A DNA stretch of 64,000 bases from a bacterium (GTDB taxonomy: Bacteria > UBA8248), in assembly GCA_965204535.1 (NCBI GenBank), contig CBDBEV010000001.1, positions 1,792,001 to 1,856,000 on the forward strand, read 5' to 3'. Each line of letters begins with the position of its first letter. Position 1 is the first letter of the stretch. Position numbers and translations under genes: made by a program. Below, piece after piece: positions 1-6,037 of this stretch. The notes beneath the pieces were generated by a model. It saw only the letters and a list, made by a program, of their open reading frames with translations. It ran no database searches and was not told the DNA's origin.

Positions 1-1373
1 TCGCGCACGAGCTTCTTGTCGAACCCGGCTTCTGCGATCTTGTTCGCGTGGGTGGGGCCGAAGATGAGCATGATCTCGCAGCGGCCGAACTGCGGCCGCG
101 TGCCGGAGCAGGCGGCCACGGTGCCGAAGGTTCCCAGGATGCCCTGCGCGGTGAGCGCGCTGTGGTCGTCCACCATGTGGAGGGGTTCGGCGGTGAACAC
201 CGTCACCACGCTGTCGGACTCGGCGAAGCCCTTCTCCACGTGGAGCGGCTCCCAGGGGCTCTGCTCCACGTTCTCGGTGATGGCGTCGAAATACTTGGCG
301 AAATGGCCCTGGCAGGTGGCGCCCCGGTTTTCGAGGTCGCCGATGCAGTTGAACATGATGAGCTTGATCGCGCGGCCGACCGAGGCGTTCACCCCCCAGC
401 CCGCTGCGCTCAAGTCGCGCCCGTCGCTCATCCCGACTTCGCGCGCGATGGGGCCGCTCACCACGACGATGGGGAAAAGCGTGTGCGCCGTGGTGATGAC
501 GTGGTTGACGTGGTACTCCTCCGCCCCCATGGCCTGCACCGCCGTCACGAGGATGGGCATGACGCCGGGACTGCAGCCCGCCATGACGGCGTTGGCCGCG
601 ATCCGCTCCACGGTGATGTCCGCCAGCCTCGGCATGAGGCGGGCGACCACCTCATCGCCCTTTCTGCCCGAGGCCGCCACGAACCGCTCCACCATCTCCA
701 GGGTGGGGGGGATGACGGGCATCCCGTCCGTCGCCCCCAGATCGAAGAGCGCGCCGTTCGCACCGATGGGGTCGCCCGCGATCGTGAGGACCCGCTCGAT
801 GGGGTCATCAGCGACTGCGGCCTCTCCCCCGTTCGCCGTGTTCATCCACTCGGCGGCGACCGTATCGACGCCGTTTTTCGCCATGCGCATCAGGGCGTCG
901 CCGCCCTGGTGGGCCACGGTGTCATCGACGAGGAGAAGGCGGAGGTGGGGGGATTTATAGGCTTTGGCGAAGCTGCGCGCCGCCGTCTCGAACCCGTTGC
1001 CCACCACCACGACGGTGGGGACGCCGCGTTTTTCAAGCTCTGCCGAGTCGTGGACACTCCACGACGTGCAACCCCCTCAGACCCCGAAGCCGGTCACCGC
1101 CACGTCGCAGTTCGAAGCGATCTCATCGAGCGTCTCCTGGCCTGCGCCCTGGGCGGCCCATCCCTTCTTGCGCACCAGGAGCTTCGCGTCGTGCCGCTCG
1201 GCGAAGGCTTCGCCGACGTGGCTCAGGAAATCGCCCGCGTGGGGCATGGAGTTATCAAGTAAAGCGATGCGGAGCCCGTCCAGGCCCGATACGGCGGCGC
1301 CTTCGCCGGAACCCCCCTTATCCGCCACGGCGGCGATGGGATTGATGATTTCGATTCGACCGTTCTCGCCCAT
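1..1373 (-). CDS. UGSC-family selenoprotein candidate (UGGC motif) fused to a downstream 'TDGxPxxPPT' domain; 3' end runs off the window
   Basis: ATG at 1373 follows a GGAGGGAG RBS. Frame reads ...VAVTGFGV-TGA(1077-1079)-GGCTSWSVHDSAELEKRGVPTV... and continues through TDGMPVIPPT and IAANAVMAGC; I saw no further stop before the window edge. A SECIS-like hairpin lies 11 nt after the TGA. Confidence 0.82.
1047..1065 (-). promoter_or_regulatory. Putative bacterial SECIS hairpin
   Basis: Minus strand GTCGTGGA-GTG-TCCACGAC is a perfect 8-bp stem with a G-containing loop, starting 11 nt after the in-frame TGA. Confidence 0.7.
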
Positions 1374-1537
1374 AGACAAACTCCCTCCAATCCAAGGGGA
1401 ACACGCACTCCGCGCCATGGGTTCGGCCGCGGTCTTCCAGTATGCTTAGATGGATCAGTTATAGACAGGAATTCGTTCGGATGTCAATTATTGTGGAGTC
1501 AGACCCGACCGAGGAGGGAGGGTCTGACGAGCGGGGA

Positions 1538-1822: not shown

Positions 1823-2635
1823 CTATCCCGTGGATTCAAATGCCCGCTCCGTCGGGCCGACCGAACTGAGGCCGCAGCGCAGGGCCTCGAGGTTGAACGT
1901 CATCCAGGGGGGCACGTTCCCGATGTTCACGTCGGGGCCGAATTCGGTGAGCAGGAACTTCTGTAGCTCGTAGATGACGTTGTTCGTCGTGCCCTCGATC
2001 CACCAGCCGGGAAGCTCGAAAATCACCTTCTTGACATCCATCTGCCCGCGGATCGAATCGATCAGAGCGCGGTCGGCCGCGCCGCCGGGCATGAGTTCCG
2101 CCGCCTCGAACAGCACCACCGAGGCGCCCGCTTCCATGCAGATGCGGGCTTGTGCGATCAGCTCCGCCGCGTCCTGCTTGCCGGTCTTGGAGCCCACCTC
2201 GCCGTGCACCTCCAGGCCGGCGTCCACCGCCGAGCGCACCATGCGCTCCCTTTCGCCGTCTGTAAGAGAAACGCAGTTGTCTGAAATCTCTATGGCCTCG
2301 ACCCCGTATTCCGCTGCCGCTTCGAAATAGGGCTGAACCCCGCCCCAGCCCTGTGTGGCGAAGATGAACTCCAGAAACTGCCCGCCGATGAAGGGCTTGA
2401 CGTCGTGGCTTTTGAAGAGCTCCAGCTTCTCCCGGTAGTAATCCTCGAGATACAGGCGCGAGGTACCCACCGCGATTTTGCCGAGGTCGATGAACGGCCC
2501 GCTCATCCGAAGCAGCCCCTGTAGATATTCGATGGTCTCCCCCTTGTCGATCATCATGGTGAGCCCGCTGGTTCTTGGTTTTTCCATGCTCCGCTCCGCG
2601 GAGAGGGGAACGAAGTCGAAGGCGAATCCGGCCAT
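1823..2635 (-). CDS. comA: Phosphosulfolactate synthase (ComA) family protein
   Basis: KPRTSGLTMMIDKG, IDLGKIAVGTSRLY, IEISD, EVGSK, VNIGNV, LEALRCGL motifs. Confidence 0.8.
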   Translation of the reverse strand: MAGFAFDFVPLSAERSMEKPRTSGLTMMIDKGETIEYLQGLLRMSGPFIDLGKIAVGTSRLYLEDYYREKLELFKSHDVKPFIGGQFLEFIFATQGWGGVQPYFEAAAEYGVEAIEISDNCVSLTDGERERMVRSAVDAGLEVHGEVGSKTGKQDAAELIAQARICMEAGASVVLFEAAELMPGGAADRALIDSIRGQMDVKKVIFELPGWWIEGTTNNVIYELQKFLLTEFGPDVNIGNVPPWMTFNLEALRCGLSSVGPTERAFESTG

Positions 2636-2890: not shown

Positions 2891-3904
2891 ATGCCGGATT
2901 TTTCCAGACCCGTATTCATCGTCAGCGCCCCGCGTTCAGGCTCGACCCTGTTCCGGCTCATCCTGGACGCCCACCCGCGCCTGGCGGTGCCCTCCCCCGC
3001 CTGGCTGTATGAAATGGTCTACCCCTACCTCTACAGCTATGGCGACCTCTCAAGCCCTGAGAACCTCGCGGCCCTCGCCGAGGACATCTTCGAGAGTCCC
3101 TTCATCAAGAACATGAAGCTCGACATCACGCCGCAGGACCTCGTTTCCGCCGCTGCCGAGCCTACCTTCCGGGGGCTTTACGACGCGCTCCACCGCCACT
3201 ACGCCGAGAACACGGGCAAGGAGCGGTGGGGCGAGAAATCCCCCCGCAATTCGTTCTGGATGGAGGAGATCAAAGGGGACTTCCCGGATGCGCAGTTCGT
3301 CCACATCGTGCGCGACGGACGCGACATGGCGATCGACATCGCCGATTCGCCCGAGATGCTGCCCGAGAACGTATATTCGGGCGCGCACGTCTGGAAGGAC
3401 TTTACGGGCACCGCGCACGAATCGGGAAAACGCATGGGGGAATCGGATTATTACGTCATCCGCTACGAGGATCTGTGCGCCGAGCCCGAGAGCGAGCTCA
3501 AGAAACTGTGCGAATTTTTGGGCGAGGACTTTGACGGACAGATGCTGGCCCACCACGAGACGGATTCGTCCAAGAGTTGGAGTTCGCTCCCCAACCATGT
3601 GAAGAGCGGGCGGCCCATCTCCACGCAATACTGCGAGATGTACAAGACGCGCCTGCCTGCGGACGACGTATCCGCGCTCGAAGAAGTGATGGGGGATCTG
3701 CTCGTCGAGTTCGGCTACCCGGTGGGCGGGAGCGCGGAACCCATCCCTGAAAAACTCGCGGCCCAGTTGATGGAGAGCGAGATGATCTCAGCACCCCGCG
3801 TGATCGCCTACCGCAAATGGCACGCCGACCGGCGGCGCGAGCGGCTCGAAGAGGGCGTCTGGAAGCTCGAAGAGAGAAAATCCCTCCTGCGCTCTCTTTG
3901 CTGA
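2891..3904 (+). CDS. Sulfotransferase family protein (paralog 1)
   Basis: 5'-PSB loop VSAPRSGSTL, RWGEKSP, HIVRDGRD, RYEDL; AGGAGG RBS before ATG 2891. Confidence 0.9.
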   Translation: MPDFSRPVFIVSAPRSGSTLFRLILDAHPRLAVPSPAWLYEMVYPYLYSYGDLSSPENLAALAEDIFESPFIKNMKLDITPQDLVSAAAEPTFRGLYDALHRHYAENTGKERWGEKSPRNSFWMEEIKGDFPDAQFVHIVRDGRDMAIDIADSPEMLPENVYSGAHVWKDFTGTAHESGKRMGESDYYVIRYEDLCAEPESELKKLCEFLGEDFDGQMLAHHETDSSKSWSSLPNHVKSGRPISTQYCEMYKTRLPADDVSALEEVMGDLLVEFGYPVGGSAEPIPEKLAAQLMESEMISAPRVIAYRKWHADRRRERLEEGVWKLEERKSLLRSLC

Positions 3905-4524
3905 TGGCGGGAAGGCGGCCGGCGGGCCGAAGCCTGCACCCCTGTTGCAAACAAGCAGGACGGCGGCCCGCGATGCCCGGACCTGATGGGGTTGTTGAAA
4001 AAGCCTTTGTCAAAGGAGCAACCCCCCCTACCCCCCCTTGTCAGGGGGGCAAGAAAAAACAAAAACCCCTCTACCGGCGGCGGGCGTCGCCTTTTTATAC
4101 CCCCCTGACAAGGGGCTGTTGAAAAAGTCCCTGCGCACCCCTCGAATGGCGACTGTAGGGGTCAGACATATATGTCTGACCCCGTGGCCGCCCGTCGGTC
4201 GTATTCACCCAGATACAGCAAGGGCGCGAGGGCCACGGACAGGCACGGGGGCCTGTCCCTACAAAACCAACCCCCCCTACCCCCCCTTGTCAGGGGGGTA
4301 AAAAAAGAAAACCCCACAAAAAAAGGATCAACTCCCCCCTTGAGGGTCTGGCTTCCCGAGGGGAAAGCCAGACGATGAAGCCGAGCGGTTTGTGCGAAGG
4401 CTGAATCGGTGGGGGGTAAAATGCGTTTTATCGCCAGTCCGAATTATACCCCCCACCGAATCGCTTTCGGGCTTACGCCCTCAGCTCTTCGTCTGGCTTT
4501 CCCCTCGGGAAGTCAGACCCTCAA

Positions 4525-6037
4525 GGGGCTGTTGAAAAACCCCTGGTTTTATGATCGTATGGAGTTATCCCCCCTCGCCCGAGATGGGAGATTCCCCGAT
4601 GTTGGACCGCAAGAGGCGCGGGCAGATGGAATTGTTCGTGGCCGGTTCGCTGGAGCAGTTGATTCCCGAAGATTACATATTGTTCCGGGTGAACCGCGTA
4701 CTGGATTTGAGTTGGCTTCGCGAGGAGGTGGCGGAGTGCTATTGCGCGGACAACGGTCGACCGGGGATCGACCCGGAAGTGGTGGTGCGGTTGATGCTGG
4801 CGGGTCTTCTGCTGGGCCACGTTCACGACCGGCATCTGCTTCGCGAGGCGCAGGTGAACCTGGCGATCCGGTGGTTCATCGGTTACGAGCTGCACGAGGA
4901 GTTGCCGGATCATTCGAGCCTGACGCGGATTCGCCAGCGGTGGGGGGAGGCGCGGTTCAAGGAAATATTGCGCCGCACGGTTCAGGCGTGCCTGGAGGCG
5001 CAGGTGGCGAAGGGAGAAGTGGTTCACATGGACGCGTCTTTGATACGCGCGGACGTGAGTTGGGAGAGTCTGGCGGCGCGCCACGCGGAGAAGGTGGTGC
5101 GGGAGAACGACTCGGCGGATGAGGCGGGGAAGAAGGGCGGCGGGGGTTCGGGTCCGGTGAGCCGTACGGACCCCGACGCGCGCCTGGCGCGCAAGAGCGC
5201 TCGGGCGGGGTTCGAGCCGAGCTACAAGCACCACGCGGTGGTGGACGACGAGCGGGGCGTTGTCCTCGACGTAGAGGTGACGGCGGGGACGTTGAACGAG
5301 CGGGAGATGATGGAGCCGCAGTTGGATGCGGTTTGCGAGCTCACGGGTCGCGCGCCCGCGGTGGTGACGGCGGATAGTGGTTATGCGTACTCGAAGGTGT
5401 ATGCGGGATTGGAGCGGCGGGGTGTTGATGCGCTGATACCGGCGAAGAAGGAGCCTTCCCAGAGCCGTGTTCCGCTGCAGTTGTTCCGCTACGACGAGCG
5501 GCACAAGGTGGTGAAGTGTCCGGGCGGCAAGACGCTGCGTCCCCGGAAGGAGACGGAGCGGGGGCGCTACTATGGTTCGAGGACGCGCGATTGCGCGGGC
5601 TGCGCGCTGAGGTCGGATTGTCTGCCCAAGTCGCACACGAGCAGGACGGTGCTGATTCCGCATGAATATCCGGCGCTGTTGCGCGCGCGCCGGCGGCACG
5701 CGCGCCGGGGGGAGGAGGAGGGCCGGCTGTGGCGCCGCCACATGTCGCGTTCGGAGGGCTACCACGGCGAAGCGAAGAGTCGGCACGGACTGGGGCGGGC
5801 GGTGCGCCGGGGCCTTGCGAACATGAGGATCCAGGCCTACCTGACGGCGACTGCGGTGAACCTCAAGCGGCTGGCCGCCGCTTTTGCGGCGGATATATTC
5901 GCTCTGTGGAGGGCCTGGGCCGCCCGGAGACGCCGTCTGCGCGCATATCGCGGCCTCACGCGCCGATTGGGCTTCCTATCCCAAGCCGCGTGAGCCGCCA
6001 TACCCCCTGCTTCAAAACAGGGTTTTTCAACAGCCCC
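4525..6037 (+). mobile_element. IS1182-family insertion sequence
   Basis: Perfect terminal IRs GGGGCTGTTGAAAAACCC (4525) and GGGTTTTTCAACAGCCCC (to 6037) flank a single transposase ORF. Confidence 0.9.
4599..5993 (+). CDS. IS1182-family transposase
   Basis: DUF772-like N-terminus (GRPGIDPEVVVRLML, IRWFIGYELHEELPDHSSL), HMDAS, ADSGY, CPGG...CAGCALRSDC, SEGYHGEAKSRHGL. Confidence 0.92.
   Translation: MLDRKRRGQMELFVAGSLEQLIPEDYILFRVNRVLDLSWLREEVAECYCADNGRPGIDPEVVVRLMLAGLLLGHVHDRHLLREAQVNLAIRWFIGYELHEELPDHSSLTRIRQRWGEARFKEILRRTVQACLEAQVAKGEVVHMDASLIRADVSWESLAARHAEKVVRENDSADEAGKKGGGGSGPVSRTDPDARLARKSARAGFEPSYKHHAVVDDERGVVLDVEVTAGTLNEREMMEPQLDAVCELTGRAPAVVTADSGYAYSKVYAGLERRGVDALIPAKKEPSQSRVPLQLFRYDERHKVVKCPGGKTLRPRKETERGRYYGSRTRDCAGCALRSDCLPKSHTSRTVLIPHEYPALLRARRRHARRGEEEGRLWRRHMSRSEGYHGEAKSRHGLGRAVRRGLANMRIQAYLTATAVNLKRLAAAFAADIFALWRAWAARRRRLRAYRGLTRRLGFLSQAA

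Follow-up and report, generated by a model that had tools for sequence, protein, structure and literature searches.

The gene at the low-coordinate end of the window (the whole 64,000-nucleotide stretch of DNA that was analysed) is read from the minus strand and opens with an ATG at 1373-1371. Ninety-eight codons precede a TGA at 1077-1079 (codon 99), after which the frame runs for 358 codons to the window edge with zero further stops; a first-pass annotation of the DNA had placed the break at the same TGA and estimated the open continuation at about 355 codons. Past the window edge the frame continues for 78 codons to a TAG (G000:C2:1791766-1791768), giving 436 codons 3' of the UGA and a complete fusion product of 535 residues. 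The residues around the UGA read GFGV-U-GGCTSWSVHD...EKRGVPTV, and the features of the gene are as follows.

1..1373, minus strand: in-window part of a UGSC/Unknown_1 fusion gene of 535 codons, the terminal TAG of which lies beyond the window.
1381..1388, minus strand: Shine-Dalgarno-like GGAGGGAG 5' of the ATG, with a comparable purine run in 13/13 orthologs.
846..1352, minus strand: UGSC domain, residues 8-176 (PF24696, 129.2 bits, cut-off 25), modelled as a flavodoxin-like alpha/beta domain.
1077..1079, minus strand: TGA codon 99, the inferred selenocysteine U99 of U-G-G-C; homologs and paralogs have Cys or TGA at this column.
1068..1070, minus strand: Cys102, the second residue of the UxxC pair, replaced by Ser in 1/8 paralogs.
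1047..1065, minus strand: SECIS-type hairpin with an 8-bp stem and a GUG loop, the loop lying 19 nt past the UGA.
1..806 and extending past the window, minus strand: Unknown_1 domain, residues ~190-535, assigned by the motif of Fig. S1A of PMC2398784 and by conservation in 213 sequences.
573..575, minus strand: Cys267 of A-G-C-x-P, a candidate redox-active residue, Cys in 212/213 aligned Unknown_1 domains.

The split gene very likely encodes one 535-residue selenocysteine protein of the UGSC/Unknown_1 type. The first-pass annotation had proposed a Sec-containing multidomain protein with a UxxC motif, and had made this depend on Sec machinery in the genome, on Cys or Sec at the U column of homologs, and on the downstream part having no translated start of its own; the proposal was borne out on each point. 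The genome encodes selA (572.8 bits), selB (389), selD (331.5) and tRNA-Sec (selC, 75.9), all above curated cut-offs, and its selD itself carries one TGA. The fused gene, with one TGA, is present in 13 of 18 same-genus genomes at 88-98% identity (12 full-length orthologs and one truncated by a contig end), and the search did not find it in the other five. Eight natural full-length homologs span 92-99% of the fusion protein, and seven of them have Cys at the Sec column; all eight UGSC paralogs of the source genome have TGA there, and 29 genome loci have TGC or TGT. PF24696 is found in 41/41 other genomes of the family (2-9 copies each), in one of two other genomes of the order and in none of seven genomes from the rest of the class, and each of the 150 matches listed (of 236, from 51 genomes in the phylum) contains one TGA. 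The closest named homologs carry the labels Nitrospinae or Candidatus Tectomicrobia; in a 2026 database paper (PMC13326102), three genomes with names of this type rank with those richest in selenoprotein genes, at 48-54 each. The idea that Cys versions belong to genomes without Sec was discarded as unsupported, selA being present in 21 of the 29 genomes with a Cys version. Contigs from RNA libraries of close relatives span the UGA in two of four runs, both of these from one study, although contigs cannot show transcription or read-through.

Were the UGA a real stop, the locus would hold either two genes (98 and 414 residues) or a broken gene, and close relatives are in fact stored in databases as separate 98- and 414-residue proteins. 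Such a split would, however, sever the domain at its predicted third strand, and the orthologs argue for protein-level selection between the UGA and the next start: over the 21 codons from the UGA to the downstream GTG, the 13 orthologs show 41 synonymous differences and one non-synonymous difference. That GTG, annotated as the start of the 414-residue frame, has no Shine-Dalgarno-like run 5' of it and is GTC or GTA in 4/13 orthologs, so that neither a conserved start nor a ribosome site is found there. Also against a stop are the Cys homologs, the same TGA column in eight paralogs and family-wide, and hairpin selection specific to TGA loci, although the 60-nt region folds no better than shuffles. 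Database proteins in which Unknown_1 precedes UGSC (P0047, P0272 and P0359) terminate exactly at the Sec column. A genuine stop is accordingly considered extremely improbable; almost certainly, SelB would bind the GU-loop hairpin and insert Sec at the UGA.

The hairpin, GTCGTGGA-GTG-TCCACGAC at 1065-1047, was found where the first-pass annotation had put it, beginning 11 nt past the UGA with its loop at 19 nt. Its 3-nt GUG loop, 8 bp, 19-nt distance and energy of -11.1 kcal/mol fall within the four bacterial SECIS constraints quoted in the Fig. 2 legend of PMC13188914, the limits compared being a loop of 3-9 nt, a stem of 4-16 bp, G in the first two loop positions, 16-37 nt from the UGA and MFE <= -7.5. 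The 19-mer alone was equalled in energy (-11.1 kcal/mol) by 0/200 shuffles, a figure biased by the window having been picked after the fact; longer windows were unremarkable (z -1.34 at 40 nt and -0.29 at 60 nt). Folding energy was therefore dropped as evidence for a SECIS element, and only codon choice was counted. As coding for T-S-W-S-V-H-D already biases the sequence towards the stem, TGA loci were compared with Cys-codon loci encoding the same peptide, using locus patterns that fixed the peptide and left synonymous positions free. At least 120 metagenome loci made up the TGA set, of which 110 were kept, and 29 GTDB genome loci (mostly Acidimicrobiia/Actinomycetes and Myxococcota/Deltaproteobacteria) made up the Cys set, of which 25 were kept; 10/120 and 4/29 respectively were dropped for a peptide off the common pattern. 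All eight stem positions were paired in 103/110 TGA loci and 6/25 Cys loci, and the loop Ser codon was AGT, which gives the GU loop, in 108/110 TGA loci and 0/25 Cys loci (AGC in 25/25), in a comparison that carries no p-value and sets different collections side by side, with GC of 0.65 and 0.70 and with 39 and 19 distinct 30-mers. Since six of the Cys loci also pair at all eight positions, the stem is partly dictated by the peptide. Paralogs in the source genome show paired stem changes, e.g. GTTGTGCA/TGCACGAC and GTCATGGA/TCCATGAC. The hairpin, which the first-pass annotation had called SECIS-like, behaves as a SECIS element at the level of sequence, the codon choice being evidence beyond chance.

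The N-terminal domain belongs, as previously suggested, to the UGSC family: it matches PF24696 over model positions 1-170 of 172 at 129.2 bits against a cut-off of 25, and follows the motif order U-G-G-C-T-S-W-S-V-H-D...E-K-R-G-V-P with G replacing the S of UGSC. Its score against NCBIfam NF041046 (99.4 bits, E 1.8e-28) is below the equivalog cut-off of 125, and homologs lie on either side of this value (P0031 at 133.6, P0034 at 73.3). Past the UGSC domain, neither Pfam nor NCBIfam yields a matching family. In 2008 Zhang & Gladyshev described a UGSC protein joined to a domain that they called ‘Unknown_1’ (PMC2398784, Fig. S1A); the source protein has IAANAVMAGCSPGVMPILVTAV where that figure has AVNGVMAGCRPEYMPILIAL (the motif and its surroundings were matched by eye), and an A-x-N-x-V-M-A-G-C stretch appears in the alignment of Unknown_1 in that paper. 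The fusion to a TDGxPxxPPT...AxNAVMAGC domain noted in the first-pass annotation is therefore the one shown there, and its claim of a newly found hidden selenoprotein falls: the architecture is already published, and the gene adds a member to the type described in 2008. An in-frame fusion is present in 20/110 TGA loci and Unknown_1 lies in the fetched DNA for 57, with only short flanks for 40/120. UGSC was among the most abundant selenoproteins of the GOS survey, with 255 sequences (PMC2398784), and a 2026 review (PMC13188914) still counts the family among the uncharacterised ones. The UGSC passages of the literature covered, a scope outside which most subscription papers fall, draw no link to a fold or to GrdB, and the main text of the BSepDB paper (PMC13326102) does not mention UGSC.

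A structure model of the full-length protein was obtained with pLDDT 90.0 and pTM 0.90. In it the N-terminal domain consists of five alternating strand-helix units (pLDDT mostly 75-95), with UxxC after strand 3 and U99 where that strand ends and the next helix starts. The best 50 fold matches listed are flavodoxin/CheY/Rossmann-type chains at Z 9.5-11.7 with no standout, and there are no thioredoxin-fold chains among them. The thioredoxin fold has the order strand-helix-strand-helix-strand-strand-helix with CxxC after the first strand; the model does not match this order, and its UxxC follows strand 3, not strand 1. Profile comparison of UGSC with the thioredoxin-type partner domains likewise gave no similarity (probability 0.6%). 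The thioredoxin-like fold of the first-pass annotation thus gives way to a flavodoxin-like one in the model, and a thioredoxin-like role, as distinct from the fold, is plausible.

Profile comparison also pointed to the selenoproteins GrdB and PrdB. The UGSC alignment (161 sequences) and a GrdB/PrdB-like alignment (29 selenoproteins of the source genome and its relatives) were joined by hhalign at a probability of 96.5% (score 65.7) over 89 columns, with Sec on Sec; the values were 93% and 50.1 with all Cys masked, and the probability was 86% with small alignments. As controls, the highest scores were 20.8 among 30 column shuffles (probability at most 2%) and 31.9 among 63 real paralog families of the genome (probability 28%). 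When 27,524 genome segments were searched with a GrdB/PrdB profile, six UGSC paralogs came within the top 15 domain hits (best E 0.003); the reverse search, with the UGSC profile, failed to single out the GrdB/PrdB genes. The fusion protein gave no PF07355 match at E 0.1, a sequence search of the PDB copy yielded no solved chain of GrdB or PrdB, and PDB sequence searches with the protein and both alignments returned nothing under E 0.1. The UGSC domain is predicted to be flavodoxin-like in the model and, at profile level, remotely GrdB/PrdB-like. The single PF09338 gene of the genome adjoins a GrdB-like gene elsewhere, not the fusion; Unknown_1 compared with the GrdE-like protein of the genome (one sequence) gave a probability of 0.1%, and no GrdA/GrdC-type genes were seen among the fusion neighbours. 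Stretches L069, L070, L071, L072 and L222 contain a GrdB-like selenoprotein whose motif, U-G-T-G, lacks the second Cys and whose gene has a GrdE-like gene nearby; they also contain three PrdB-like selenoproteins, two reading U-P-L-C and one U-G-L-C, beside which the search turned up no PF09338 gene.

At E 0.001, 1e-10 and 1e-30, Unknown_1 homologs fall into 8,370, 5,494 and 2,634 clusters respectively, the 5,494 being 50% identity clusters with E at most 1e-10. Cys267, kept in 212/213 aligned domains, is the sole invariant Cys, and the near-invariant polar residues in the 213 sequences are D216, T224, C267, N329, R334, E367, W374 and H442. A fold search with a model of the second Unknown_1 copy (described below) returned 59 chains at Z >= 2 and none at 5, the best being class I fumarate hydratase at background level, a result that establishes neither a new fold nor a relationship. 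The ESM Atlas gave automatically named, Pfam-less clusters only, with no usable named match.

Among 120 listed long Unknown_1 homologs (of 284 found), 88 carry a thioredoxin-type N-terminal domain (C-P/E-T-C/S/A), 26 carry PF24696 in either domain order and two are fused to thioredoxin reductase; a second search, in which 34 proteins were scanned, added a third thioredoxin reductase fusion and one fusion to ferredoxin-thioredoxin reductase (FTR) beta. The named partners found are thiol-redox modules throughout, and Unknown_1 therefore most likely depends on reducing power from thiols or selenols. A linker Cys in a P-G-C motif is present in 87/88 of the thioredoxin-type fusions (P0152-P0270). 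The notion that this PGC motif is sometimes Sec was rejected, no internal stop being found in 19 listed P0213 matches from 29 genomes. Some database chains (P0271, P0299, P0313 and P0330) contain two Unknown_1 domains each.

A second Unknown_1 gene starts 4 bases past the fusion stop (L001:16731-17762, minus strand, just outside the window) and is kept in 9/9 relatives. It encodes 344 residues, ~30% identical to the C-terminal domain of the fusion, and its model has pLDDT 92.8. The order of fusion, second copy, PF12831 FAD oxidoreductase and sugar-type ABC transporter is kept in all nine relatives. Of the eight UGSC genes of the genome, seven are fused to Unknown_1 or have an Unknown_1 gene as immediate neighbour, and the remaining one lies 2.7 kb from four such genes; for three of the 15 Unknown_1 genes, the stretches fetched contain no UGSC gene. 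At L011:6667-10891 (plus strand) four tandem Unknown_1 genes are followed by an opposite-strand molybdopterin oxidoreductase and then a UGSC selenoprotein gene. The paralog at L013:7418-8020 (minus strand) reads U-G-S-S, with no second Cys, and sits between CoA-transferase/enoyl-CoA hydratase genes and an Unknown_1 gene. YqeB, a selenium-dependent molybdenum cofactor protein, is encoded at L016:3426-4412 (minus strand; 359.9 bits, cut-off 220), ~1.5 kb downstream of a UGSC/Unknown_1 pair. Outside the genus the neighbours include amidohydrolases, CoA-transferases, acyl-CoA dehydrogenases, SDRs and luciferase-like enzymes; they are mixed catabolic genes with no single pathway.

On the other side of the gene, a comA gene (PF02679) lies at 1823-2635 on the same strand as the fusion, which does sit behind it as the first-pass annotation had observed. 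The sulfur-handling context read from this position was dropped: comA is directly upstream of the fusion in 0/9 relatives (in two it lies ~7 kb off, beyond the transporter), and a dispersed repeat with terminator-like hairpins separates the two genes. ComA is an accidental neighbour. The repeat (window ~1530-1770) is palindromic, gives 100-230 blastn hits per position genome-wide (34 hits of >=150 nt) and has terminator-like hairpins on both strands; sequence resembling it is visible near 3960-4380. The ComA-family protein (1823-2635, minus strand) scores 152, below the TIGR03849 cut-off of 280, and its gene is divergent from a sulfotransferase gene at 2891-3904 (plus strand), a pair kept in two relatives. 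Further on, a 480-codon frame at 4551-5993 (plus strand) is transposase-like by eye and has near-identical copies in L019 and L226.

Because the named Unknown_1 fusion partners found are all thiol-redox modules, UGSC may be viewed as the reductant and Unknown_1 as the enzyme. Unknown_1 would reductively turn over a small organic substrate, leaving Cys267 or a bound intermediate oxidised. The UGSC domain would serve as its dedicated selenol/thiol reductant (U99-x-x-C102): Sec99 would attack the oxidised Cys267 or intermediate, Cys102 would resolve the adduct, and the thioredoxin system of the cell would re-reduce the selenenylsulfide. TlpA-Msr-style relays offer a comparison for this scheme. 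Unknown_1 probably pairs, in its action, with the copy encoded 4 bases downstream, as the two-domain chains in the database and the gene order in 9/9 relatives suggest, and its substrate probably has a connection with the FAD oxidoreductase and sugar-type ABC transporter conserved alongside. The relay is tentative and has slightly less than an even chance of being correct, and the explanation taken whole (a selenoprotein with UGSC as dedicated reductant and Unknown_1 as predicted enzyme) has about an even one. Against the relay, some natural UGSC fusions (P0079, P0286, P0303 and P0315) lack Cys at the Sec column; with the three Unknown_1 genes that have no UGSC gene in the fetched stretches, they imply that the UGSC-Unknown_1 pair is not obligatory. 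The thioredoxin reductase (three) and FTR-beta (one) fusions are few and could include assembly artefacts, Cys267 could be structural instead of redox-active, and UGSC, which has no profile likeness to the thioredoxin-type partners, resembles GrdB/PrdB, in which Sec attacks the substrate directly.

This last resemblance suggests another chemistry, in which Sec99 would attack a carbon of a substrate held by Unknown_1, a pyruvoyl-free binding partner, and cleave a C-N or C-S bond, much as the Sec of PrdB attacks the alpha carbon of D-proline (PMC11229817). The hhalign match, which with and without Cys masking exceeds shuffles and 63 real families, and the rank of the six UGSC paralogs with the GrdB/PrdB profile both favour such an attack. 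However, the likeness spans only ~90 residues, the UGSC profile misses the GrdB/PrdB genes in reverse, Unknown_1 does not resemble the one GrdE-like sequence, and UGSC fusions without Cys at the Sec column exist. Thioredoxin-type fusions also outnumber UGSC fusions (88 and 26 of the 120 listed), which an exchangeable reductant fits better. Direct attack by Sec99 is thus considered unlikely, and so is the corresponding proposal that UGSC/Unknown_1 is an unrecognised third branch of the glycine/proline-reductase type, with a flavodoxin-like Sec module of remote GrdB/PrdB homology and no pyruvoyl partner. If that branch did exist, Unknown_1 would be a large catalytic domain without a close solved structure, and each of the eight Sec and 15 Unknown_1 paralogs would have its own small organic compound to cleave or reduce.

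Rather less probable still is that the U/C, C and H residues are ligands of a metal, a metalloid or an Fe-S cluster at the domain interface, in a hydro-lyase-like enzyme or metal-handling protein rather than one that cycles between selenol and selenenylsulfide. The weak fold matches of Unknown_1 lean this way, with class I fumarate hydratase at the top (Foldseek E 3e-4, TM 0.23-0.28; Z 4.6, rmsd 5.3 over 177) and serine dehydratase at Z 3.0-3.3, both Fe-S hydro-lyases, as do the conserved D216, E367 and H442; yet a Z of 4.6 falls short of the 7-8 that the tool gives as a typical best background value, the PDB searches lend no sequence support, and Unknown_1 has only one invariant Cys. For the N-terminal domain, chain H of the MCR activation complex has the highest identity (18%) among the top-row matches, at Z 10.7 and rmsd 4.8 over 137, but ties with many generic flavodoxin-like chains.

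The gene itself is an ordinary selenoprotein gene split by gene callers, and its fusion has been in print since 2008. The value lies in the predicted non-thioredoxin fold, the remote tie to GrdB/PrdB, the thiol-redox partners of four kinds and the invariant Cys of Unknown_1, which suggest specific experiments, and natural full-length Cys fusions ease expression for such experiments.

The closest known system is the UGSC/Unknown_1 fusion of PMC2398784, with PF24696 and NF041046, in which the same UxxC domain precedes the A-x-N-x-V-M-A-G-C domain. The source protein differs from the published fusion in having UGGC instead of UGSC and in the second, free-standing Unknown_1 gene that comes after its own; a likely Trx-like fold is given in the paper, whereas the predicted model of the source protein is flavodoxin-like. 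GrdB and PrdB (PF07355) align over ~90 residues near the Sec, in the order strand-U-G-x-C-helix-E-x-x-G-x-P-T-strand, but the fusion has no PF07355 match and its partner is Unknown_1, not a pyruvoyl proprotein. The TlpA/AhpC-TSA-type thioredoxin-Unknown_1 fusions (such as P0156 and P0213) share the same Unknown_1 with a redox-motif domain in front, and have a thioredoxin-type domain with CPxC/S and a PGC linker where the fusion described here has UGSC.
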